64,000 bases of DNA from a virus. The notes beneath the pieces were generated by a model, which was not told the origin of the DNA, searched no databases, and was given only the letters and a program-made list of their open reading frames with translations. Both the position numbers and the translations under genes were made by a program. Shown here piece after piece: positions 1 through 48,062 of the stretch (within the stretch, counting starts at the first letter, position 1; every line of letters starts with the position of its first letter). The DNA lies in the IMG/VR virus record IMGVR_UViG_3300050343_000117, positions 32,001 through 96,000 of that record; one strand, 5' to 3'.

Positions 1-20
1 ACAGAATTCAGGGGGGTGTG

Positions 21-821
21 TCAATCAATTACCTTAAAAAAATTGTGTCGAGTCCACGGTTGTTCTTGCTTCTTATCTGAGTACCCATGATGGTCCTGAG
101 TTACCGCAAGACGTTTTGAAATCACCTGAGTAGTTGGCGTAGGTATCCCAGTGCGATGTCTGTCTCTCTTATTGAAGTAAATCCCAATGTCACGACCAAC
201 ACCTATTGTATCACATTCGTTCCAAGGATGCAAGGCGGTATTACGAATTCCATAATAATTAATATCTGGGCGATGTAGATAGGTTGTGGTATATGTTCTG
301 AAAAGACGTTGTAGAACACAGTAAGGTCCACAGTTAATCGGGAAATTGTTCTGAGTCATCATATGGTGGGACCAGTGTGCGAAACTCCTGTCCATGCAGT
401 ACATGCCCATGAACAGTCCTATATTCGCGTAGAGCGTGTTCTCTGCGTACTCAGATAGTAGTTTGAATGATTCGTATCTCTCTTCGAGTAACCAAGTGTC
501 ATGCTCCATAATCCAGAACTTTTCGTCTGACTGACCTTGTTGTCGCATGAGTTCCCAGTGAGAACACATCCCTGCCTTCTCTGTAGGTGAGTGGTCTTCC
601 TTTCCATTTCCTGAATTTAGGTCTAGAGTCATGAGACTTTTGGACCATGTGTAACTATCTACATGCTCTTCAAAATTTTCGGAATCTGGTGTGATGGCAT
701 CGAAGGTTTCTATGGAGTCAATGTAACCATCATCGATAGCACGTTGAAAGGAATATCGGGAGAGTGATGCGTACTCTTCTGATCGTTCATCACCTTTCAT
801 TACAATCTGTATCGCTTTCAT
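21..821 (-). CDS. Glycosyltransferase, GT25 (LPS biosynthesis)-like
   Basis: 'FDAITP...EKAGMCSHWELMRQ...FWIMEHD' matches the GT25 pattern (E-x-G-C-x-x-S-H...I-x-E-x-D); start overlaps the stop of the PhyH gene (818-821). Confidence 0.65.
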   Translation of the reverse strand: MKAIQIVMKGDERSEEYASLSRYSFQRAIDDGYIDSIETFDAITPDSENFEEHVDSYTWSKSLMTLDLNSGNGKEDHSPTEKAGMCSHWELMRQQGQSDEKFWIMEHDTWLLEERYESFKLLSEYAENTLYANIGLFMGMYCMDRSFAHWSHHMMTQNNFPINCGPYCVLQRLFRTYTTTYLHRPDINYYGIRNTALHPWNECDTIGVGRDIGIYFNKRDRHRTGIPTPTTQVISKRLAVTQDHHGYSDKKQEQPWTRHNFFKVID

Positions 822-1525
822 TCTACGGGTAACCTGTCCTGTGATTGATGATCATTATGTGTTTTGGGAACATGTTCTCTATGAATATACTCCCAAGCAA
901 TACTATAACGGTATCGATCGCTTCTGTTTCTATAACATCCATGCACTAAGTTAGGATGAAAAAACACTGCAAATGGTCGATCTAGTTCCACATCTACTAT
1001 ATCAAAATCTTCTTCGTCAACCCTCATCCAATTGAACACACCATGTGTCCGATGATTATGTTCATAATATTTGGTATGAGATTTAGGTACCACTCTGAGA
1101 CAACCATTCTCTTTATCAGCACCGTTAACAAAAACATCACAACTAACCAGACGGTTTGGATCAGCTTCAATATAATGATTGTCTTGATGCCATCCTACAG
1201 AAAACCCCTCATGGGGTACCATAGGGAAAAACTTTGAGATGTAAGTATCTATGTCTTCTTGATCTAATAAGAAACGAGCAGTGTCCACGAGCCTTTCGTT
1301 GTGTCCCAACTCGCCAAATACTTCACTGCGCATCATAGCCCCATCTAACTTACAGGGATTTCCTCTTTTGTTTATAACCCACCCGTTGCGATTATCGAAA
1401 AGTCTAACGGCATACTTTCGATACTTATCACACTCATCATTAAGTATTTGATGCTCATGAACTGTTAGGAAATCAGTAATGATCACGTAACCTAGTTCAT
1501 CAAATTTTGTTATATCGTAGTTCAT
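818..1525 (-). CDS. Phytanoyl-CoA dioxygenase (PhyH)-family 2OG-Fe(II) oxygenase
   Basis: 'FDELGYVII', 'GWHQDNHY', 'ENGCLRVVPKSH', 'LVHG...NRSDRYRYS'; ATG at 1525 preferred over the TTG inside the terminator U-tract. Confidence 0.85.
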   Translation of the reverse strand: MNYDITKFDELGYVIITDFLTVHEHQILNDECDKYRKYAVRLFDNRNGWVINKRGNPCKLDGAMMRSEVFGELGHNERLVDTARFLLDQEDIDTYISKFFPMVPHEGFSVGWHQDNHYIEADPNRLVSCDVFVNGADKENGCLRVVPKSHTKYYEHNHRTHGVFNWMRVDEEDFDIVDVELDRPFAVFFHPNLVHGCYRNRSDRYRYSIAWEYIHREHVPKTHNDHQSQDRLPVE

Positions 1526-1532
1526 AGAAACC

Positions 1533-1560
1533 AAAAAAAAGGGAGACCAATGTCTCCCTA
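1533..1560 (-). terminator. Rho-independent terminator downstream of hsp20
   Basis: minus strand GGGAGAC-ATTG-GTCTCCC followed by T8. Confidence 0.75.
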
Positions 1561-1659
1561 TTTATTTACATAATAGATGTTATACAAAATAACATCGTAG
1601 TCATACATAGTAGATTGATACTTATGAGACCAAATTTTTCTAGGTCTTCAGAATCACGT

Positions 1660-2142
1660 CTAGCCATGTAGTCCTTTATCTGCTGCATCTAAACTCTCCT
1701 CGTTTAAAAGTTGTGGTTCAAGTGTGTTTAAACCGTTAATTTCAACCTTACGAGGCCGCTGAGAATCAGGGATTATTACCTCCAGACGGATGGCAAGTAG
1801 CCCGTTCCTGAAATCAGCTCCCATTACTTCAACATACTCCGACATGCGGAATTGTCTTTCGAACTTCTTCGTTGAGATTCCTTTATGGATGTAATCTCGA
1901 TCCGAATCTTTTATCTGTCCTCTAATGGTCAGTGTTCGGTTCTTTACTTCGATTTCGAGTTCGTCTTCGGCGAAACCGGCGACGGCTAACTCGATTAGGT
2001 ATTGATCCTCTCCCGTCTTTAGAATATTGTGCGGGGGGAACGTATCACCAGAGTTGCGTGAGATTCGATCTAATTCATCGATCATGGTATCAAAACCAAC
2101 GAATGCTGAACGTGGGAACAATTGCTTTGCTGTTAATGTCAT
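1660..2142 (-). CDS. hsp20: Small heat-shock protein Hsp20 (IbpA-like)
   Basis: 'FPPHNILK...YLIELAVAGF...LTIRG...YIHKGISTKKFERQF...ADFRNGLLAIRL'. Confidence 0.93.
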   Translation of the reverse strand: MTLTAKQLFPRSAFVGFDTMIDELDRISRNSGDTFPPHNILKTGEDQYLIELAVAGFAEDELEIEVKNRTLTIRGQIKDSDRDYIHKGISTKKFERQFRMSEYVEVMGADFRNGLLAIRLEVIIPDSQRPRKVEINGLNTLEPQLLNEESLDAADKGLHG

Positions 2143-2248
2143 GTTGTGACTCCTAATTATATTAGCAAGTTTATTATGGATACCCGACCATTCGGCATAT
2201 CCGGTACTATATATACAAACTATGAGAATAAAAGTAACAAAAGTGTTA

Positions 2249-2491
2249 CTATTCTAAATTATCTTCGTCATCAATATTAATTATAGGCAACGAAGCATCA
2301 ACCAACACAACCTTCTCATTTTCAATCATGTCGATTATTTCTAACGTAACATTTATGTCCATCTGAATATAGGACATTTTTCTCTCGCACATTTCGAGAT
2401 GCTTACGATAAAATTCTAATTCTTGTTCTTTTTCTACTTTTCTTGCACTTATATTGGCAAGAGAAATTATATTGTTCTTTTTGCCAGACAT
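2249..2491 (-). CDS. Hypothetical coiled-coil protein
   Basis: 80-aa ORF in operon orientation with a plausible SD; no family recognised. Confidence 0.6.
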   Translation of the reverse strand: MSGKKNNIISLANISARKVEKEQELEFYRKHLEMCERKMSYIQMDINVTLEIIDMIENEKVVLVDASLPIINIDDEDNLE

Positions 2492-2500
2492 ACTTCGTCC

Positions 2501-3043
2501 TTAATAGTACATTGATGGGTCCGGAATTCCTTCTATTCCAAATGAAAAGGATACACGAGATTCTCTAGGGAATACTTGGTGATGAGTTGAACGAGGTAAG
2601 TAAACATACATACCCGGCTCAAAGTCAAACGGTTCATTATCGTTTATGCCTTCCACCTTTAGACCGACAGTACTAATAACCTGAACTAAGAACACATCCA
2701 TAGCATCTTTGTGCCATGGATAAGAACCACTTGCACGACCAAAACCACTAAACGCAATGTTAGTGATTTTGTTCTGGTGCAGCGTGAACACATCTTGTAA
2801 CTCTGTATAGATGTTCTTCGCAAACTCTGGTGAACTACCACGAGTATGGAAGTTGTTCAAACCTATACGCATCTTATCTGAGTTTCTGTCGTATAGGTCA
2901 TTTGGATGCGAGTCCATCATTTGCATGAACTCGTTCCAATTGTAAGTCTCTTTCATATCAAACGGAAGTTTGCCTACGAACGGAGTCTTGGTGCGAATAT
3001 TCTCTTCGCGATCTTCAAATATATCATAACAAGTATTTGACAT
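2501..3043 (-). CDS. JmjC/cupin-4-like 2OG-Fe(II) oxygenase
   Basis: 'YPWHKDAMDVFLVQV...FEPGMYVYLPRSTHHQV...RVSFSFG' resembles RoxA/YcfD-type cupins. Confidence 0.75.
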   Translation of the reverse strand: MSNTCYDIFEDREENIRTKTPFVGKLPFDMKETYNWNEFMQMMDSHPNDLYDRNSDKMRIGLNNFHTRGSSPEFAKNIYTELQDVFTLHQNKITNIAFSGFGRASGSYPWHKDAMDVFLVQVISTVGLKVEGINDNEPFDFEPGMYVYLPRSTHHQVFPRESRVSFSFGIEGIPDPSMYY

Positions 3044-3453
3044 CAGCTATTCCCAATGTTATATTTTGGTTGCAGTGTCCATTCAGACTTGTCCTTATAT
3101 GAGATTATCTTTATCTGTCTCATAGGAGCACAGTCACGAGCAACCTCTTTATTGACTATTGCGACTAGGCCCCAATCTTGCAATAGTGTTGCGATCGTAT
3201 TGCGTCTTTCAATATCAGACACTTCTAGATTTGATTTTTTGCCGTCCAGTAAAAACAACTCCTTGAAATGGACGATGAAGTACCTACCCTGCTTATGCAA
3301 GATATGGCACGATTGATATAAGGTGTTGTCTCTACGCGAAGCAACCCCTATACGCGTTAATGTTTCTCTGACTTTTAGGAAGTCATCTGGTTCTGATAGA
3401 CTGATTTCCAACATCATATCAGAATTCCACTGAACGAGATTATTCTCTTCCAC
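3043..3453 (-). CDS. regA: Translational repressor RegA
   Basis: 'PDDFLKVRETLTRIGVASR...LYQSCHILHKQGRYFIVHFKELF'. Confidence 0.97.
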   Translation of the reverse strand: MEENNLVQWNSDMMLEISLSEPDDFLKVRETLTRIGVASRRDNTLYQSCHILHKQGRYFIVHFKELFLLDGKKSNLEVSDIERRNTIATLLQDWGLVAIVNKEVARDCAPMRQIKIISYKDKSEWTLQPKYNIGNS

Positions 3454-31000: not shown

Positions 31001-32923
31001 AACTCGTTAAGAGTATCCAGTGCAGCAGGAGCGGCGTCAACAGTTGCAGCGACAACTTGATCAGCATATGCTTTAGCACTTGTTTCTGCAGCATCTGCCT
31101 TAGTAGTTGCGTCTGCTGAAGCACTTGCTTCTGCCGCATCTGCCTTAGAAGTTGCGTCTGCTGAAGCAGTTGAGATTGCTTCTGACTTAGCAGTTGCAAC
31201 ATCATTAGAAAGGTCATTAAGTACATCGACAACTGACTTTTGCGCACCTAAAATTTCTACTGATGCATCATGCATAATTTCAGAGAAATGATAAAATCCA
31301 CTGGCAGTTCCAGAAATCTGATCATCGTTGAACGAAGATACTGGCGAAGAAGGGTTCTCTGCGTCATACGCATAAACCCATGACTTACCTTCATTAGGAT
31401 TAGTATCCCAATTATTCATCCACGCATCATCTCCGCGATCGCTCACATATACCTTATCGCCGATTTTTGTCATAGACCAAGTAAATCTGTTTGATAACGC
31501 ACCATTATAGTTGCCGCCTTGTGGTGCGGTAATTTCAAGAGGTGATGATGAAAGGTTATTCTTGTCGTATACGTAAAGAGAACCTTGCTGACTATCGTAA
31601 CTGGAACTACTCGTGCCAGGTGATGCAAATCGCGCACCAACAAACAACTTAGTGTCTGTTTCTACCATAGAATGGCCAAACGCGTCATCTTGAGGAGAAC
31701 CTAATTGGGTATTATACCAAGAATTTTCTGGCGACATAACTGATTCTAGATACGCCGATGAACCAGAGTTTAACGAAGATAATGAGTATACATACAAACC
31801 GCCAGTTTCAGAAGGACTACTTCCTGTTGCAACATACAACTTAGTCCCATCTTGAGATAACATTAAGTTTTCTGCATAACTATAAAAACCATTTCCAGAA
31901 ATAAGGTTTACAGGAGTTCCGGAAAAGCGTTTGTAAATCAAACACTGCAAGAGCACCACTACCATCTGAAGTGTCATTATTTCCATATTGCAATATGGAA
32001 GCATATAAGTGTGTATTTGTAGCAACCATTCCGGTATTTTGATAAGAAGTACCGCCTAGTCTTACCCCATTACCAGTTGAGAATAAAGATGCATCTGCAG
32101 CAACATAAGTAGGTGCTGAAGTTAAGTCATTAATATCATAGACATAGAATCCACCCACGGCCGAAATAATAACAGAGTTGTCATTTTTTCTTATTTGCTC
32201 GCCGAAAAATTCATCTTCTGTAGGAGTAGGCGCTTGAAGAACTGTAGGTGCTTTGTTGTAATCAGTAGTATCATACACAAAAACGACACCAGCATTTGAT
32301 ACGGTAGTGTCACCACCGAATGCGCCTACAAGAAGTTTGCCTGGTATAGTCAGTAGACTTCCACCATAAATGCTATAACTGCCCTCTGGGCTTTGTAAAG
32401 TGATATGCCCAGATGTCGGACTTAATGGATTTATCAAAAGTAATGATTCTACGCCAGACCCTGTTCTTGGACGTACGGCCAAGTAACTTTCATATATCGA
32501 AGGGTCGCGAGGAAATTGCGATGTATCTCCAACAGCTGTTTGCAAAGTTGTTAATTCTGCTTGAACAGACGTGTCAAGTGTATCCAGATCAGCAGGAGTC
32601 GCAACACCACTTGTTAAAGTAGCATTAATTGTAGCAATGTCGGATGAGTTAGACGCAACACTTGCCACTAGGTTTGTATCTGCATCTTGGAATGCAGTTA
32701 CGATTTCTTGTAATGTATCCAGAGTTTCTGGAGACGTACCTAGAATCGCGGTAACTTGCGACTGTAGGTCTGCGATGTCAGAAGCAGTTAAATCTGCTAC
32801 CGCATCAGCAATTGCGCCTGCGACAACCTTGCCGTCTGCGCCAATAACAGTAACGTCGTTGATTGATAGTTCTCCAACTATGTCAGCTCCGTTCTGAATT
32901 CTAAACTTTTTATTAGTACTCAT
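28096..32923 (-). CDS. Large fibre protein (~1600 aa; frameshift near 31930): coiled-coil segments, FG-GAP-like propeller and CBM-like insert
   Basis: 'AAPAALDTLNELAAALGDDANF' x3; 'LLVGAFG...AGVVFVYD', 'FGHSM...LFVGA...GSLYVYD'; ORFs 31880..32923 and 28096..32025 join into one. Confidence 0.75.
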
Positions 32924-40287: not shown

Positions 40288-40638
40288 TTACCTTGTTACC
40301 GAAGGATTGACTTTGATCTTACCTTCTAGTATTCTTTCTATAATAGTATGTCCGTCCACATCGACGAAGCTTATTTCCACATCATAAACATATCTACCGC
40401 GAGTGGATAGAACGTCAGTCTGTAGATTGGTTAGGGATATTGTAACGATACCTTCTAGGGAAGGTGTAGGAATGACAGCAGTGAAGTCGATCGACTCAGC
40501 ACTTCTGTAAGTTTTTTTCATTTTGGCTGCTACTGAATAACCAGTAAGGTCTTTCTGTGAACCATCGGGATTCACCAACTCTATTTGTAGAGCTAGGTCT
40601 GCGCCTTGGTCAATTGTAAAATCTTCGTAAGTAGCCAT
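40288..40638 (-). CDS. Virion structural adaptor (BppU-like)
   Basis: 'TIDQGAD...DLTGYSVAAKMKK...GRYVYDVEI...RILEG.I.VNPSVT'. Confidence 0.7.
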   Translation of the reverse strand: MATYEDFTIDQGADLALQIELVNPDGSQKDLTGYSVAAKMKKTYRSAESIDFTAVIPTPSLEGIVTISLTNLQTDVLSTRGRYVYDVEISFVDVDGHTIIERILEGKIKVNPSVTR

Positions 40639-40678
40639 AATCCTCAAAACCCTGAACTGTTTATAAAACGTCTTCCTC

Positions 40679-40686
40679 TATTTATA
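40679..40686 (-). promoter_or_regulatory. T4-type late promoter embedded in an inverted repeat
   Basis: TATAAATA overlapping the arm/loop of the inverted repeat at ~40647-40699. Confidence 0.75.
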
Positions 40687-40713
40687 ACAGTTCAAGGTTA
40701 GAAGAAAATCTTT

Positions 40714-41421
40714 TTAGTCTTCAGATTCAATATCTGAAAGGACCATTGCACGGAAACCTTCAGATGCTTCTGAATGATCAAAAACATATGATACCGTGAC
40801 GCGCCAATCGTCTGTAGACGCAGCGTGATACATTACTTTATCTGTCTCACCATAGTGACCAAAGTATGCTGCCTTACAAGTCCATTTACCTGGCTTGTCT
40901 TGACTACGAATAACTTCTTTAGTCTCTGGGTGAATGTACTCAAAGTAACCTGAACCATCTTCTGAATAAGAGAAGATTAGGTTATAGCCTGGCGCATTTG
41001 CATTGTTGTGCCATGAGATGAATCCTCCTGGCGGGTATACTGCTGCAAGTGCATTATGTTTGACAGACAAAAAGTTCATCATTTTGTCGTTTAGGTCACG
41101 CAAGTGATGAGTCATATCGCGTTTGAAAATTGGATCAGCATCCTTCTCAAACATCATATGCGCTTTGTCAGAAAGTTTAAAGTTGTAACCAACTAGTTCG
41201 TCTGGGAACCCTTCGTGACCTTGACCTTGAGCAACAATCTCATCCATATGCTTAGGTCCAACAAAGTATGGACGCTGGCGAATGTGTTGTGCAGAGGATA
41301 GGTGACAGTTCTCTTCGAAACCTTTCATGGTATGCAACTTGGCGTATTCGTTTAGAATCTCTAGCAACTCAGGATTGTTTACCTGTACGTGCCTTAGATA
41401 TGAGTCGTTTACCTGTGTCAT
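40714..41421 (-). CDS. Uncharacterised DSBH / 2OG-oxygenase-like protein (H-N-N variant), paralog 2
   Basis: 'YPPGGFISWHNNANA...VMYHAA...WRVTVSY'. Confidence 0.6.
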   Translation of the reverse strand: MTQVNDSYLRHVQVNNPELLEILNEYAKLHTMKGFEENCHLSSAQHIRQRPYFVGPKHMDEIVAQGQGHEGFPDELVGYNFKLSDKAHMMFEKDADPIFKRDMTHHLRDLNDKMMNFLSVKHNALAAVYPPGGFISWHNNANAPGYNLIFSYSEDGSGYFEYIHPETKEVIRSQDKPGKWTCKAAYFGHYGETDKVMYHAASTDDWRVTVSYVFDHSEASEGFRAMVLSDIESED

Positions 41422-42155
41422 ACGATTGGAGTATCCTTGTTTAACCCTGCCGAGAAGTGACGCAAAATCACTGGACCCGTTTCAGGTTGTGTGATTGCCC
41501 AGTTCAGGGCGTTGTAATAATTCCACCTCAAGTCGTCATCAAAGATACCAACTTTGAGGTCCTTATATTTCTCTTCTTTCTCGACTAACCACCAGAGAGA
41601 AAATTGGTCCCAAGATTTGAGACTATCTACATACCCTTCCGGCCACCAAGAATCATTCATCTGTCTGAATGTTAAGTCCCACCAGTCATCCATAAATTCA
41701 CGAACAATTGGTTTAGACATATCATATAAACAAACACCACCGCATAGTGTGAACTTAGATTTACCTTCTGGCGTATCAAAGTCTCTTTCTGCGTAAATAT
41801 AATCACGATCATCTGTCAATGCTGAGAAGACCAAATCATGGTCTTTCATTTCATCCCAAACCTTGACGATGTCTTCGTGCTCACATTCCATATCAGCATC
41901 AATGTACATTGTCAAGTCATACGGAGATTTTGCCATCCCCCATAACTTAGCGCGATAGTGGTCGTCACAAAACATAATATCATCTGCAACATCTCTACCA
42001 CGATCATCAAGAAATCTTTCTTCTGTTACCAAACAAATCTTACATTCCTCTTCAGGTTCATAATAATCCCGAATAGACTCTGCAAGATTGATTGCGTACA
42101 AATAAAAGTTGCGTTTCTTGGACGCAACAATTATGAATCCTTTAGTCTTTTCCAT
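41418..42155 (-). CDS. GT-A fold glycosyltransferase (nucleotide-diphospho-sugar transferase)
   Basis: 'KGFIIVA...AINLAESIR', 'KLWGMAKSPYDLTMYIDADM' (DxD), 'GGVCLY', 'WDQFSLW', 'RWNY', 'ILRH'. Confidence 0.75.
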   Translation of the reverse strand: MEKTKGFIIVASKKRNFYLYAINLAESIRDYYEPEEECKICLVTEERFLDDRGRDVADDIMFCDDHYRAKLWGMAKSPYDLTMYIDADMECEHEDIVKVWDEMKDHDLVFSALTDDRDYIYAERDFDTPEGKSKFTLCGGVCLYDMSKPIVREFMDDWWDLTFRQMNDSWWPEGYVDSLKSWDQFSLWWLVEKEEKYKDLKVGIFDDDLRWNYYNALNWAITQPETGPVILRHFSAGLNKDTPIV

Positions 42156-42603
42156 TAGTCTCGGCCTCTAGTTGGTCTTGTAAAATCATAATTGAGTACA
42201 TATCGACTTCAATCTTAGACTTTGCACGACGCAATTTTGCCTTCAACTTACGGTTCTTAGAGTTCTTAATCTCTTCGACTTCGAACGCTTCCATCTTATA
42301 ATTGAAGAGTTTTTCTAGTTTACGTGCCTTGTTATGTTCTTCGTCACGCATCTTCTCTTCTTCTGCTTCTGCCTTCTTTCGTTCAACACGGTCAACAGTT
42401 TCCTTGTCAATCGAATCTTCACCTAGGGCATCAACAACTTCATTAAACAGTTCGTTCTCACTACCATCCTTATCATGACGGTGTAAAAACATTTGTTGTC
42501 GTGTGACACGACCCATATCATCTTCAAGTTCTAGAATACAGTTTAGTTCTTTCTTTTCTTCCGTTTCCCAGAACGCATTATCCATCCATTGTTTACGACT
42601 CAT
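42142..42603 (-). CDS. Hypothetical protein
   Basis: Charged helical ORF coupled to the GT gene; 'LFNYKMEAFEVEEIKNSKNRKLK..LRRAK'. Confidence 0.65.
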   Translation of the reverse strand: MSRKQWMDNAFWETEEKKELNCILELEDDMGRVTRQQMFLHRHDKDGSENELFNEVVDALGEDSIDKETVDRVERKKAEAEEEKMRDEEHNKARKLEKLFNYKMEAFEVEEIKNSKNRKLKAKLRRAKSKIEVDMYSIMILQDQLEAETNGKD

Positions 42604-42691: not shown

Positions 42692-42720
42692 ATTATACCA
42701 TACTTAGGTTGATTATGCAA
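42692..42720 (-). promoter_or_regulatory. Sigma70-like promoter for the hypothetical-GT-oxygenase cassette
   Basis: TTGCAT-N17-TATAAT. Confidence 0.6.
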
Positions 42721-45700
42721 CCCTACAGTATAGAGTATAAGTTTCTGGTGTATGTACTAGAGTGTCGCTAATCGTTGCACCAACATAGTTACCTAGGAAG
42801 GAACGTGAGTAGTTGCCACCGAAGTTACGTGAGTAATCACCTGTAAACGTACGTGAGTAGTTACCAGTGAAGTCACCTACGTATGTAGATACACGATCAC
42901 GTGAGTAAGTACCTGAGTATGCAGAACTACGGATTCTTGCGTAAGCAGAAACCCTTACACGTGAGTAGTTACCTACGAAGTCGCGTGAGTAGTTACCTAC
43001 GAAGTCACCAACAAAATCACGGGCATATGTACCAGTGTATTCACCAGCATATGCTCTTGAGTAGTTACCAGTGAAGTCACCAGCAAAGTCACGAGTGTAC
43101 TGACCGGAGAAATCACGTGAGTAGTTACCTGTGAATGTGTTAGAGTAAGTACCAGTGTACTCACCAACGAATCCACGAGCGTAGTTTCCTACGTAGTTTC
43201 CACCGAAGTTACGTGAGTAAGTTCCGGAGTAAGCGCCAGTGTACTCACCAACGAATCCACGTGAGTAAGTTCCAGCATATTCACCAGTGAAAGTACGTGC
43301 ATAGTTTCCTACGTAGTTTCCACCAAACTGTCGAGTGTAATTACCAACATAGTTACCAGTAAAGTCACCAACATAATCCCCAACAAAGTTACCCGCATAG
43401 TTACGAGAGTATTGTCCGGAGAATGTGCGTGAGTAGTTACCTGTAAAGTCACCAGCAAAGTTAGTTACACGATCACGAGTGTATGCAGATGAACGGTTAC
43501 GTGTGTAAACCGAAACACGAGTCCTTACATATGCAGAGTAACGAGTACGCGTTGAAGTACGAGTGTACTCACCAGTATAGTTACCAGCGTAATCGCCAGC
43601 GTATCCACGAGCGTAGTTGCCTACGAAGTCACCAGCATACCCACGTGCGTAGTTACCCACGAAGTTACCAGCGAAGTTAGTTACGCGATCTCTTGTGAAG
43701 TCACCAATATAGTTAGTCACACGTGTACGAGCGTAAGCAGAACCACGGTTACGAGTCGAAGTACGTGTTGAAGTACGAGTAAAGTCGCCAACATAGTTAG
43801 TGATACGAGTACGAGCATATGCAGAGTAACGAACGCGAGTAGAAGTTCGAGTTGAAGTTCTTGCGTAGTTACCTACGAAGTTACCAGCAAAGTTAGTTAC
43901 ACGGTTACGAGTAAAGTCGCCAACATAGTTAGTGATACGAGTACGAGCGTAAGCAGAGTAACGAGTACGTGTTGAAGTACGAGTACTAGTTCTTGCGTAG
44001 TTACCAACATAATCACCGGCATAACCTAGAGTACGTGTGTAGTCACCTACGTAATCACCAGCATAGTAACCAGTACGAGTGTAGTAACCAGTCTCAGTAC
44101 GAGTACGAGTACTAGTTCTTGCGTAGTTACCAGTATAGTGACCAGTGCGTGTACGACCATAGTTACCAGTGTAAGCACCAGTACGTGTACGAGAGTAATC
44201 TCCGGCATATGAGAACGCACGGTTACGTGAGTAATCTCCAGCAAAGTTACCTGTAAAGTTAGTTACACGATCACGTGAGTAGTTACCCGCATAAGATGCG
44301 TTACGTGTACGAGAGTAGTTTCCTACGAAATCACCGGCATAAGATGCAGCACGGTTACGTGAGTAATCTCCAGCATAAGATGCATTACGTGTACGTCCGT
44401 AGTTACCTACAAAGTTTCCGGTATAGTTAGTAGCACGAGTACGACCATAGTTACCAGTATATGTTACGCCACGAGTGTAGTTACCAGTATAGTAGAATGT
44501 TGAATTACGAGTACGTGTGTAGTTACCCGCGAAACTGGTTGTTCTGGAATATGTCAAGTTACCTACGAAGTTACCAGCGAAGTTACCAGCATAAGATGAA
44601 CCACCCGATTGGTAAGTAACACCATAATGTGATACGAATCCATTCGTGTTTCTCCAAACAGCACGATAATATGTTACACCGCCAGCAGTCAGAGATGTTC
44701 CGTTTCCTGTCATGCTTCCAACTATAGATCCATTAACATAAACGGTAACAAAATTGATTCCACCTTCATTATCCGAACGCCAACCTGTAGTTAACGACCA
44801 GTTATTTCCGGAATATGCGTTGGTTACGGTACCACCAGCACCAGTAGAAGTACGTGTGGAAGTACGCGTTGATGTTACTGTACGAGTATAGTTTGAAGTT
44901 GCTACACTGTTACGAGTATAGTTACCAACATATCCCGTTCCGTTAACAGAGGTTCTAGTATAGTCAAGTGTTGCAGCACGTCCTCTAGAGTAATCACCAA
45001 CAAAGTTACCTGTGAAGTTGGTTGCACGAGTACGTGAGTAGTTACCCGCATAAGATGCGGCACGAGTACGTCCATAGTTACCAGTATATGTTGCATTACG
45101 TGTACGTGTTGATGTACGAGCATAGTTACCGACATAAGATGCGGCACGAGTACGTCCATAGTTACCTACGAAGTTGCCTGCGTAGTTAGTAGCACGAGTA
45201 CGACCATAGTTACCAGTATAGTGACCAGTACGTGTACGTCCGTAGTTACCGACATATGAGAATGCACGGTTACGAGAGTAATCACCAGCGTATGAGAACG
45301 CACGGTTACGAGAGTAGTCACCTACGTAGTTTCCAGCATAGTACAATGTACGAGTATATGCTAGTGTACGTGTTGATGTACGTGTTGAAGTACGTGTATA
45401 GTTGTATGTTTGGTAGCGAGTACGTGTTGAAGTTCTTGCGTAATTTCCCACATAATCGCCAGCATAGTTACCAGCATATCCACGAGCATAGTTACCAACA
45501 AAATCACCTGTGAACGTTGTTGCATAGTTACCAACAAAATCACCAGCAAAGTTAGTTACACGATCACGTGAATAGTTACCTACGTAATCACCAGCATAGT
45601 TACCAGCGTATCCACGTGCGTAGTTACCAACAAAGTCGCCAGTAAATGTGGTTGCATAGTTACCTACGTAATCACCGGCATAGTTACCAGCAAAGTTACG

Positions 45701-47455
45701 TGCATAGTTTCCTACGAAGTTACCAACGAAGTCACGAGCATAGTTTCCTACGAAGTTACCGGCAAAGTTAGTGACACGGTCACGTGTATATGCAGAGTAG
45801 CGAGTACGAGTTGACGTACGAGCATATGCTGAATAACGTGTACGAGTAGATGTACGAGTAGAAACGCGAGCGTAGTTACCAACATAATCACCTGCATAAC
45901 CACGGGAATAGTTACCTACGAATCCACGTGAGTAGTTACCCACGAATCCACGAGCATAGTTTCCTACGAAGTTACCGGCAAAGTTAGTGACTCGATTGCG
46001 TGTGTAAGTAGAAACACGTGCACGAGAGTAAACGCCTGCAAAGTTAGTTACACGGTCACGTGTATAATTGGTAATACGAGTACGGGTGTAATCAGCAGAG
46101 TATGCTGAAGTACGAGTACGAGTATAAGTCCCTGCGTAAGCAGATACACGGTTGCGTGAATAGGTACCGGCATATGCAGATACACGGTTACGAGAATAAG
46201 TTCCAGCGTAAGTTCCAGTGTATGTTGATACGCGTGTACGAGTGTAGTCTGCTGAGTAAGAAGAACTACGTGTACGTGAGTAAGTACCTGAGTAAGTTGA
46301 AACACGACCACGAGTATATGCAGATGTGCGAGTACGTGAGAATGTTCCGGTAAATGGTGTGACGCGGTTTCGAACATATGTAGAAACACGTGAACGGTTG
46401 TAAGTACCGGCAAAGTATCCAGTAAATGCAGTTAGTCTATTACGTGTATATGAAGATACGCGTGTTCTTGCATAATTACCTACGTAATCACGTGAATAAT
46501 TACCTACGAAGTCACGGGAATATGCACCAGTGTAGTTACCAACAAACGTACGTGCAAATGTGTCCACACTGTTACGTGTGTAAGTAGAAACACGGTCACG
46601 TGAGTATGCAGAAACCCTAGTACGAGTGTAAGCTGAGTTACGTGTACGAGAGTATGCAACGTCGACAATAGTACGACGGGTGTTAGAGGCAGAACCTCGT
46701 GGTACCCATGTACCTGCCAAAGATGGTGCGCCTTGTGCAGATGAACGCAACTGGTATGAACCAATCGCACCTGCTGTAGATCGAAGTGATTTAGCACGTT
46801 GACCAAGTGTGTACTTGATTTCCGCGTCGGTCATAGACTTCAGACCATTGAATGATGTACCATCATAATCTGTTGCGACTGGACGTGTAGTAACTACACC
46901 AGCTGGTGGAGTTGCAAGTGCAGTTCGTTTCCAGATATGATATTGAGTTGTTGTACCATCACCATGTGTATCGGCAAACACATTCTCGATGTGCTTAGTC
47001 CAATCACTACCTGGCGAGGTAGTTGAAAGTTCGAATGCACCTTGAAGACCTAGAGTCTCCATGTTTTTTAGTGCACGGTTTGTCAGATTATCCAAATCCC
47101 CATCTACCATTTCGTAGAAGCCAGGATTTGCGTTATCTGCGTAATAACCGACAGGACGGGCAAAATCAGAACCAGATTCACTCGCGGAACCAGCAACCTG
47201 TTTCAAGGTTGTAGTTACACTTGTGCCAGTGATAGCAGACATTGGGTGTGTACCCGCTGGTTCATTGTAGTACGTATCTACAAAAGAACCGATGTTTGTA
47301 CCATTGGTTAGACTGATGTCACCGACATCACCAGCGGAGGCCTCCGCTAATGCTTCACCCACTTTTACAGCAAGATACATCTCTTCTGCTGGAGTGAATT
47401 CCTGTAGGTCACCATCGGTATTTTTAATTTTTAGTGGTATACTAGATGCTGACAC
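42713..47455 (-). CDS. 1580-aa Tyr/Arg/Gly/Thr tetrad-repeat protein with mirror-complementary arms (putative giant beta-hairpin fibre)
   Basis: Globular N-domain (aa 1-~267), ~600-aa repeat arm, ~85-aa non-repetitive centre, ~600-aa complementary arm, short C-tail; late promoter at 47508-47515. Confidence 0.85.
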   Translation of the reverse strand: MSASSIPLKIKNTDGDLQEFTPAEEMYLAVKVGEALAEASAGDVGDISLTNGTNIGSFVDTYYNEPAGTHPMSAITGTSVTTTLKQVAGSASESGSDFARPVGYYADNANPGFYEMVDGDLDNLTNRALKNMETLGLQGAFELSTTSPGSDWTKHIENVFADTHGDGTTTQYHIWKRTALATPPAGVVTTRPVATDYDGTSFNGLKSMTDAEIKYTLGQRAKSLRSTAGAIGSYQLRSSAQGAPSLAGTWVPRGSASNTRRTIVDVAYSRTRNSAYTRTRVSAYSRDRVSTYTRNSVDTFARTFVGNYTGAYSRDFVGNYSRDYVGNYARTRVSSYTRNRLTAFTGYFAGTYNRSRVSTYVRNRVTPFTGTFSRTRTSAYTRGRVSTYSGTYSRTRSSSYSADYTRTRVSTYTGTYAGTYSRNRVSAYAGTYSRNRVSAYAGTYTRTRTSAYSADYTRTRITNYTRDRVTNFAGVYSRARVSTYTRNRVTNFAGNFVGNYARGFVGNYSRGFVGNYSRGYAGDYVGNYARVSTRTSTRTRYSAYARTSTRTRYSAYTRDRVTNFAGNFVGNYARDFVGNFVGNYARNFAGNYAGDYVGNYATTFTGDFVGNYARGYAGNYAGDYVGNYSRDRVTNFAGDFVGNYATTFTGDFVGNYARGYAGNYAGDYVGNYARTSTRTRYQTYNYTRTSTRTSTRTLAYTRTLYYAGNYVGDYSRNRAFSYAGDYSRNRAFSYVGNYGRTRTGHYTGNYGRTRATNYAGNFVGNYGRTRAASYVGNYARTSTRTRNATYTGNYGRTRAASYAGNYSRTRATNFTGNFVGDYSRGRAATLDYTRTSVNGTGYVGNYTRNSVATSNYTRTVTSTRTSTRTSTGAGGTVTNAYSGNNWSLTTGWRSDNEGGINFVTVYVNGSIVGSMTGNGTSLTAGGVTYYRAVWRNTNGFVSHYGVTYQSGGSSYAGNFAGNFVGNLTYSRTTSFAGNYTRTRNSTFYYTGNYTRGVTYTGNYGRTRATNYTGNFVGNYGRTRNASYAGDYSRNRAASYAGDFVGNYSRTRNASYAGNYSRDRVTNFTGNFAGDYSRNRAFSYAGDYSRTRTGAYTGNYGRTRTGHYTGNYARTSTRTRTETGYYTRTGYYAGDYVGDYTRTLGYAGDYVGNYARTSTRTSTRTRYSAYARTRITNYVGDFTRNRVTNFAGNFVGNYARTSTRTSTRVRYSAYARTRITNYVGDFTRTSTRTSTRNRGSAYARTRVTNYIGDFTRDRVTNFAGNFVGNYARGYAGDFVGNYARGYAGDYAGNYTGEYTRTSTRTRYSAYVRTRVSVYTRNRSSAYTRDRVTNFAGDFTGNYSRTFSGQYSRNYAGNFVGDYVGDFTGNYVGNYTRQFGGNYVGNYARTFTGEYAGTYSRGFVGEYTGAYSGTYSRNFGGNYVGNYARGFVGEYTGTYSNTFTGNYSRDFSGQYTRDFAGDFTGNYSRAYAGEYTGTYARDFVGDFVGNYSRDFVGNYSRVRVSAYARIRSSAYSGTYSRDRVSTYVGDFTGNYSRTFTGDYSRNFGGNYSRSFLGNYVGATISDTLVHTPETYTLYCRVA
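42785..46654 (-). repeat. 12-nt / 4-aa period repeat array (xGNY, xRxR, xSxY, xRxF tetrads) interrupted by the central domain at ~44590-44845
   Basis: Dozens of GGTAACTA(C/T) and ACTCGTAC units. Confidence 0.95.
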
Positions 47456-47621: not shown

Positions 47622-48062
47622 TTATTGTGGAGTTTCTGGCCAGTTGACCTGATCAATATTTGACATATTCGGATCAATAAAGTCTAAGTCCCTTAATTCC
47701 TGACGATACCCCGCCCACGCATTCTTCATATCAGTAGATAGTGGAGAGTCTGAGAGCTGAGTCCAGTCAGTGCTCGCTATCATGCGATTTCTCATAAATC
47801 TGACTTCATTCATTAGATCTTCTTGATCCCAGACCCATTCTCCATCTACCCAAGAAGAATGTCTATTTGGAGAAGATTCTCTTTCTTTCCAGTTACCATC
47901 CCAGTAATGGGTCTGTATAAACTCAGCTTTATCTGAGATTACAAAATCAATATGGACAATTGTTGTTCCATCTTCTCTTAAACCTTCAGGTTCATTAGAA
48001 CCAGATGCTAACTTTAATGTTTGTATTTCATTATTTCTAATGTATGCGATATAATAAATCAT
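47622..48062 (-). CDS. Tail fibre assembly chaperone-like protein
   Basis: 'VRFMRNRMIASTDWTQLSDSPL...WAGYRQELRDL...WPETP'. Confidence 0.8.
   Translation of the reverse strand: MIYYIAYIRNNEIQTLKLASGSNEPEGLREDGTTIVHIDFVISDKAEFIQTHYWDGNWKERESSPNRHSSWVDGEWVWDQEDLMNEVRFMRNRMIASTDWTQLSDSPLSTDMKNAWAGYRQELRDLDFIDPNMSNIDQVNWPETPQ

Follow-up and report, generated by a model that had tools for sequence, protein, structure and literature searches.

Mirror-complementary arms and paired length changes in a predicted fold-back fibre protein of marine T4-like phages

We analyzed a 64,000-nucleotide (nt) stretch of viral DNA, positions 32,001 to 96,000 of IMG/VR record IMGVR_UViG_3300050343_000117 (hereafter, the window), and within it a gene whose 1580-amino acid (aa) product, P0001, is a predicted fibre protein. 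P0001 carries two arms of 606 residues each on either side of a central knob. At the level of sequence, each arm is the mirror-image complement of the other, and close alleles differ in length by equal insertions or deletions at mirror sites of the two arms. We consider it likely that the protein forms an antiparallel fold-back beta ribbon that is under selection for register. Such a ribbon would have an extended length of ~200 nm, assuming the usual beta-strand rise per residue over 606 residues.

An aromatic residue recurs at every fourth position from residue 268 to residue 1557 (Table 1; residue i corresponds to window position 47455-3(i-1)). The phase of these tetrads is constant from 268 to 672; it then shifts by 2 residues at 685-702 in the N arm, and a mirrored 2-residue shift occurs at ~1120-1145 in the C arm. 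We compared the arms through a smoothed Gly-minus-Arg index, setting the N arm against the reversed C arm at 613 offsets. The two were anticorrelated (r=-0.715) at offset 1826 over 605 residues, which was the single sharp minimum of the 613 offsets (mean -0.005, standard deviation (sd) 0.127). Outside the flanks of the main peak (1822-1831) the best minimum was -0.30, and the best parallel offset gave -0.41. Autoconvolution of the window protein, which replaced a global correlation that was noisy at small overlaps, gave z=-7.4 among 2185 offsets. A residue-level log-odds scan for high-scoring segment pairs, trained on the window protein, was dominated by period-4 and pseudocount artefacts and was dropped in favour of the Gly-minus-Arg index.

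The complementarity can be read as a rule between facing tetrads. At the sequence level, xGxY/F units stand opposite xRxR or xRxS units, and xS/TxY/F units stand opposite xR/GxF units. Among the 146 facing pairs, 42 were R|G, 36 were G|R, 7 were G|G and none was R|R, the remainder involving xS/TxY/F units. No inverted DNA repeat of at least 30 nt was found in the gene – the mirror pattern thus belongs to the protein and does not derive from a DNA palindrome. Mutual information between residues peaked at axis offsets -1 and +1 and dipped at 0, as would be expected if cross-strand neighbours on the same face co-vary. Changes of unit class also tended to coincide at facing positions (both sides 98, N only 105, C only 193, neither 2478; odds ratio ~12), with the caveat that the inner parts of both arms are more variable anyway.

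A preliminary description of this DNA had pointed to a 44-aa (132-nt) tandem duplication in the N arm, a complementary duplication at the mirror position of the C arm, and self-complementary blocks (TRDR-VTNF-AGNF-VGNY) recurring in both arms. All three are present. The N-arm copies are identical at 88/132 nt and share a 32-aa core (VGNY ATTF TGDF VGNY ARGY AGNY AGDY VGNY) that matches at 32/32 aa and 80/96 nt; Tandem Repeats Finder (TRF) reported period 132, 2.0 copies and 81% matches at 45453-45716. The C-arm copies, which face the N-arm copies exactly, are identical at 96/132 nt, and their 28-aa core (ARTS TRTS TRTR YSAY ARTR ITNY VGDF) matches at 27/28 aa and 73/84 nt. As a baseline, random in-phase 84-nt windows of the N arm average 45% nt identity (sd 8.7%). 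The C-arm duplication does not take the clean 2 x 44 form that had been described: it consists of three 28-aa units (A28) with two spacers of a 16-aa self-complementary block (B16), and its TRF period is 84.

These blocks face one another in the register given by the arms as a whole. Under i+j=1826, N 645-672 lies opposite C 1154-1181, N 601-628 lies opposite C 1198-1225, and B16 and its variants at N 485, 557 and 629 stand opposite their own kind at C 1326, 1254 and 1182. Outward from the knob, the block order is C28-B16-C28-C28'-B16 in the N arm and A28-B16-A28-A28-B16 in the C arm, placing every block opposite its partner (C against A, B against B). The mirrored duplications are confirmed.

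Synonymous codons differ at 16 of 32 positions in the identical N core and at 7 of 27 in the C core, and this divergence indicates that the copies are old and have been held by selection on the protein. Besides age, selection against long exact DNA repeats is possible in these cores of identical protein and divergent codons (45404-45667 and 43733-43996). The pattern had been attributed to either strong selection on register or an unusual recombination route. Of these, selection on register offers the most economical reading. The recombination route that had been suggested, with blocks copied from one arm to the other, is not supported: the gene lacks inverted DNA repeats, and the B blocks of opposite arms are identical at only 38-42 of 48 nt. 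Since the paired A and C sequences differ, the A unit is not a copy of the C unit.

Alleles were compared using an IMG/VR scan that located 53 loci, of which 48 were translated and five without the N terminus were left out. Eight of the 48 ran off their contig and six that did not begin at the gene start were dropped, leaving 34 full-length genes that represent 29 distinct sequences (879-2059 aa). When the window protein was aligned pairwise with close relatives, equal indels appeared in both arms, which bears out the proposal that length changes by paired insertions at two mirror sites ~1.6 kb apart. Paired differences comprised +28 at N810 with +28 at C1019 (L009), +2 at N732 with +2 at C1095 (L007), -16 at N609 with -16 at C1197 and -4 at N755 with -4 at C1071 (both L016), and +12 at N332 with +12 at C1489 and +6 at N805 with +6 at C1018 (both L026). 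Other relatives lacked 12, 16 and 30 residues (L008), 102 residues (L020) or 112 residues (L037) in the N arm and the same numbers in the C arm. Across the nine closest relatives, 17 of 21 changed zones were equal in both arms; the four exceptions all adjoin the knob, where a gap can be assigned to knob or arm alike. Pairs at least 90% identical to one another showed arm differences of -2/-2, +28/+28, +4/+4, -32/-32 and +28/+28. One-arm indels were not frequent – there was one unpaired indel among the 29 distinct relatives.

The lengths of the gaps are a sign of beta strands. In 64 pairs of sequences at least 70% identical, which are not independent of one another, gaps in the arms were even in length in 570 of 581 cases (302 of these being multiples of four), whereas gaps in the N domain, knob and ends of the same pairs were even in only 181 of 430. 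The zone that holds the duplications (N 557-672 and C 1154-1269), mapped through alignments, was equal and mirror-consistent in 17 of 23 relatives; it measured 116/116 residues in nine of these and 100/100 in five, and single relatives had 128/128, 74/74 and 30/30. L016 carries three copies of B16 plus ATTF TGDF VGNY opposite three copies of B16 plus GRTR VTNY VGDF, and L042 carries four tandem ATTF TGDF VGNY units opposite four xRTR xTxY VGDF units. The zone of the duplications is itself a hotspot of length variation.

Equal arms are also found across relatives of very different size. In 28 of the 29 distinct sequences, the best mirror offset obtained from composition alone equals arm start plus arm end plus 4 to 6 (plus 4 in the window protein), with z of -4.5 to -8.8 among 783-3159 offsets. 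Arm length therefore ranges from ~260 to ~850 residues with both arms equal. The spread of arm lengths is about fourfold, but it does not support the tunable molecular ruler that had been proposed, which stays conjectural. The sole true relative that tblastn identified among cultured or deposited phages is a ‘hypothetical protein’ of Phage C48C1 (Kyanoviridae) with the same neighbouring genes. In three separate segments, its inner arms (435 residues each) keep register at offset 2665, and its landmark intervals differ from those of the window protein by +72/+72 and -16/-16. Globular insertions, about five in number, interrupt the C48C1 homologue, and all of them fall in the outer C arm; the repeat segments of its C arm add up to approximately as many residues as the outer N arm has, to within about 15. 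A 75-aa stretch (RKTRHRSYLYY…SGQY) occurs twice in tandem in this protein and may be an assembly duplication.

We propose that the product of the gene is a fibre protein from a T4-like, Kyanoviridae-like marine cyanophage. Beyond the 264-aa N domain, the chain would extend as a beta strand along the N arm, turn within the 84-aa variable knob and return along the C arm antiparallel to the N arm, placing residue i beside ~1826-i. With the chain folded back, the C-terminal tail would therefore return to the N domain. Pairing of tetrads would hold one face of the ribbon at a roughly constant bulk. Both arms would have to keep register, such that a length change would survive only with an equal change at the mirror site of the other arm, and the matched number of residues gained or lost would almost always be even. 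The two 44-aa duplications would then be one old matched pair. Slippage or unequal crossing-over in the DNA of each arm, which has a 12-nt period, probably supplied the raw material, and selection for the matching change would have followed.

On balance, and by a small margin of belief, we favour a broader description of the protein as an analogue of a nucleic-acid stem-loop. It would be a two-stranded ribbon of ~0.2 micrometres (to ~0.35 in relatives) whose tetrad pairing code, xGxY against xRxR/S, sets the register, with compensatory mirror indels, swaps of unit class and lectin-like modules that can be spliced into one strand. Compensatory mirror indels would therefore allow the reach of the fibre to be retuned in two-residue steps without redesign of the fold.

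Several observations weigh against a fold-back ribbon under selection for register. When all 29 relatives were taken together, net changes of the N and C arms were equal in only 12 and within 4 residues in 20 (r=0.94), and only 51 of 143 changed zones were equal. In our judgement, much of this looser agreement reflects ambiguous alignment of repeats to distant sequences. The six of 23 relatives in which the duplicated zone was not mirror-consistent, as mapped from landmarks of the window protein, are likewise all distant, and the relatives that were counted are not independent of one another by phylogeny. Across the wider family, the Gly/Arg index placed the axis within 8 residues of the expected position in only 13 of 76 full-length members, where about 1 would be expected by chance. 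One relative (L043:10001-14959), 99.9% identical to L042 and to L044-L046, has an unpaired 24-aa (72-nt) deletion in the C arm. The deletion lies inside a tandem GTYSRGFVGEYT array whose DNA holds a 41-nt exact repeat at period 72, and either recent slippage or a collapse in assembly produced it. In both cases it illustrates what has to come before a matched pair, an event in one arm; this variant and the periodic DNA make frequent slippage plausible.

Structure prediction added little on the arms. AlphaFold2 (AF2), applied to residues 743-1083 with a 24-row alignment, produced an all-beta knob with a predicted local distance difference test score (pLDDT) of 81-95 for residues 874-952; the arms were drawn as strands with pLDDT <50, giving no structural support for or against their pairing. 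A complex prediction of N 557-672 with C 1154-1269 scored 0.00 in a run without controls and counts neither for nor against pairing. The place of P0001 in virions is a prediction. Finally, the sequence statistics depend only on the constant i+j, and an antiparallel homodimer fits them equally well.

A substantial possibility, if not the one we would bet on, is that most paired length differences arose in one step, by exchange of a distal module between co-infecting phages and not by two compensating indels. The inner N arm, knob and inner C arm form one contiguous DNA stretch, and recombinational exchange of this whole module could be a further route of change. Identity to close relatives is symmetric about the knob: it is mostly >85% in the outer arms, 48-80% in the inner arms and 25-36% in the knob, even in relatives that are otherwise 71-87% identical. 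This symmetric fall suggests distal-module exchange as a route by which matched pairs could be moved in a single event, and many paired indels in pairs at least 90% identical do lie near the knob (-32/-32 at 865 and 1021; +28/+28 at 871 and 991). Exchange, however, merely moves paired states – each matched pair first arose as two events, one per arm. Also against a one-step origin, the +12/+12 pair at N332 and C1489 lies far out with the intervening sequence shared, the zone around the 44-aa duplications shares 85-95% identity with close relatives, and a single-arm slippage variant (L043) exists. The same comparison revealed a layout typical of tail fibres, with a conserved attachment end and a variable distal tip: across eight close relatives, identity was 68-98% in the N-domain zones 1-129 and 130-264, 75-100% in the C tail and 25-36% in the knob.

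We regard it as improbable that the pairing is intermolecular, with the N arm of one chain antiparallel to the C arm of another in a head-to-tail dimer or higher assembly, knob against knob. Beyond the equal fit to the statistics, this arrangement draws some support from the arms not being confidently folded as a monomer by AF2. It is opposed by the compact and confidently predicted knob lying exactly on the axis, and by the combination of a hypervariable tip with conserved N and C ends, which fits one attachment end and one distal end. The family-wide C-terminal motif would adjoin the N domain in a fold-back, and a two-fold symmetric fibre with attachment domains at both ends would be unusual for virions.

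It is very improbable that the arms do not touch and that the mirror pattern is a by-product of repeat turnover or composition constraints in arms that fold separately, as a beta-solenoid or meander. AF2 does draw 10-14-residue strands with 2-residue breaks in the arms, and the whole model, low-confidence parts included, aligns weakly (Z about 3) to beta-solenoid ice-binding proteins; the solenoid-like regions of the model, however, have pLDDT <50. Separate folding offers no reason for Gly-rich segments to face Arg-rich ones in one gapless 605-residue register and explains neither the lack of R|R pairs nor equal indels at mirror sites down to 2 residues, and the gene has no inverted DNA repeat able to create the pattern.

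That the duplications are artefacts of assembling a highly repetitive gene, across which short-read unitigs do fragment, can be excluded for practical purposes, because nucleotide divergence between the copies is 17% in the N core and 13% in the C core with the protein kept and because the same 116/116-aa arrangement occurs in nine other contigs. Logan unitigs also bridge the junction of the N-arm copies in two sequencing runs from different studies, X1 (45414-45762, 0 differences) and X2 (45414-45668, 1 difference), one of which is possibly the source sample. Many ‘joints’ in Logan contigs with sides <30 nt were repeat noise. At 45038-45123, contigs of runs X1 and X2 that resemble the window at ~90-95% lack 84 nt (28 aa) of the N arm, with 112 nt on the shorter side. 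This gap is a co-occurring strain variant, in contigs too short to reach its mirror site at ~44312-44398.

P0001 belongs to a large family in seawater and marine metagenomes, with 150 protein matches at E<=1e-5. Among the 120 of these that were listed, most have both the PLKxK… N terminus and the …ETYTLYVRxA C terminus, and members that are named at all are called ‘hypothetical protein’ or bear a bare locus label. The stretch 43500-46000 (residues 486-1319) was represented by 70-92% of sampled words in 20 seawater or marine runs from 15 studies. P0001 itself matched 0 Pfam and 0 PHROG families at the thresholds used and 0 PDB chains at E<=1 by sequence, and a search of the ESM Atlas returned only unnamed viral clusters with scores <=0.84. 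Another metagenomic protein, P0003 (1798 aa, cut at the contig end), carries, between the N domain and the tetrad arm, a Laminin_G_3 domain (residues 275-425) together with eight FG-GAP repeats. By its domain matches it is a putative fibre decorated with lectin-like or propeller modules. Synechococcus phage S-RIM2, which accounts for 63 records among the tblastn matches listed, was rejected as a family member; NC_020859, the one record translated, matches through a TGNV-type array of low complexity that is unrelated to the family. This array of four-residue TGNV/TGNL/TGDL units lies in a 1912-aa S-RIM2 structural protein (L056:1417-7155) and gives spurious tblastn matches.

Table 1. Coordinates of P0001, its parts and associated genes (window positions except in the last row).
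Feature	Position	Strand	Details
Whole gene, predicted fold-back fibre protein P0001	42713..47455	-	1580 aa + stop; GTG start
N-terminal globular domain	46664..47455	-	residues 1-264; PLKxK start; conserved across family
N arm	44846..46663	-	residues 265-870 (606 aa); xxxY/F tetrads
Central knob	44594..44845	-	residues 871-954 (84 aa); non-repeat; hypervariable; centred on mirror axis 913
C arm	42776..44593	-	residues 955-1560 (606 aa); tetrads
C-terminal tail	42713..42775	-	residues 1561-1580 (…ETYTLYCRVA) + stop; motif conserved family-wide
N-arm duplication, copy 1	45536..45667	-	residues 597-640
N-arm duplication, copy 2	45404..45535	-	residues 641-684
C-arm duplication, copy 1	43865..43996	-	residues 1154-1197 = A28 + B16; faces N 629-672
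C-arm duplication, copy 2	43733..43864	-	residues 1198-1241; A28 part faces N 601-628
Third A28 unit	43697..43780	-	residues 1226-1253; 62/84 nt identical to second; faces N 573-600 (C28')
B16 block TRDR VTNF AGNF VGNY	45740..45787	-	residues 557-572; faces B16 at 1254-1269 (43649-43696)
B16 block SRDR VTNF AGDF VGNY	45524..45571	-	residues 629-644; faces B16 at 1182-1197 (43865-43912)
Tail fibre assembly chaperone	47622..48062	-	directly upstream of fibre gene; PF16778 E=1.3e-14; phrog_4912
Phage C48C1 homologue	L002:612-10655		OQ984149.1 CDS0201; 3347 aa

The fibre gene lies in a tail and fibre module beside a gene for an assembly chaperone (Table 1), as expected of tail fibres, and the gene order is the same in Phage C48C1. 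A nearby gene at 28096-32025 matches tail-fibre PHROGs. The small downstream genes at 40288-42603 are syntenic with C48C1 CDS0202-0205, one of which carries the annotation ‘L-shaped tail fiber protein assembly’. The three of these genes that were scanned (40714-41421, 41418-42155 and 42142-42603) contain no Pfam family, and megablast of the neighbouring genes returned no match. Open reading frames (ORFs) of 83-121 aa also overlap the fibre gene itself, at 44902-45159, 45232-45513, 46048-46413, 46102-46353 and 46504-46806. Rich in His, Leu and Val, they read through the periodic sequence in other frames of the gene's strand and on the opposite strand, and most likely they do not represent genes.

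Fold searches were made with the two globular parts. The N domain was modelled well by AF2 with a 24-row alignment, A2 (pLDDT 88.3, predicted template modelling score (pTM) 0.85), and matched no assignable fold: the best hits were Z 4.9 with VIA, E 1.1 with Foldseek against PDB and E 0.29 against BFVD. Two local matches, to T4 gp11 (Z 4.0 over 45 residues) and to the baseplate cup of a Klebsiella phage (Z 4.1 over 41 residues), were weak, lay within noise and were set aside. The knob, a candidate host-recognition element, gave no convincing structural counterpart in PDB, the best match with VIA having Z 4.0.

If the arms do pair, they would form, to our knowledge, the longest two-stranded beta structure by far. 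P0001 would then exemplify a fibre design with a readable pairing code, and would offer a natural system for studying how proteins keep register over long range and how compensatory indels evolve inside one protein. It might also provide a scaffold that can be programmed for length through the number of repeats. In terms of phage ecology, the family marks an abundant and unannotated class of fibre in marine T4-like phages. The abstracts returned by a literature search contained nothing on the P0001 family.

The nearest known system belongs to the long tail fibre of T4 and comprises the needle and tip of protein gp37 (PDB 2XGF), whose fold-back topology was reportedly described by Bartual et al. 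in 2010. The gp37 needle is short, with tens of residues per strand. As in gp37, the P0001 chain would run out to a distal receptor-binding tip and back again antiparallel, the tip is variable, and a chaperone gene is nearby. Unlike in gp37, each arm has ~600 residues and a four-residue repeat with a Gly/Arg pairing rule. Excerpts from published accounts describe gp37 (PDB 2XGF) as having HxH iron sites (PMC6116203) and ‘seven coordinated iron atoms along the needle’ (PMC6957217). The HxH motif is absent from the 1580 residues of P0001, and the only two His residues of the arms are both in TGHY. The family and PDB searches described above likewise gave no similarity of P0001 to gp37.

Triple beta-helix and triple beta-spiral shafts consist of parallel chains with a repeat of 8 or about 15 residues. 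In the triple beta-helix, three parallel chains with 8-residue repeats are in register, with no requirement that the halves of any one chain match. P0001 differs in having an aromatic period of 4, gaps in multiples of 2, and N and C halves that are mirror-complementary. What it would have in common with the triple-stranded beta-helix of T4 gp5 and related spikes, as these appear in excerpts of PMC4576200, is an elongated, thin beta structure in a phage tail organelle, built from repeats with Gly or small residues at fixed positions.

The evolution of the arms resembles, by analogy, compensatory evolution in RNA stems: distant segments obey a pairing rule, and changes of both unit class and length are matched. 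Unlike in RNA stems, it is protein tetrads rather than bases that would pair, and the DNAs of the two arms are not reverse-complementary. Periodic DNA in the shafts of phage fibres, such as collagen-like ones, undergoes frequent slippage and unequal crossing-over, and fibre length varies between strains. In such ordinary repeat shafts a single change of copy number is enough, whereas in P0001 a change would be tolerated only with an equal change ~1.6 kb away.

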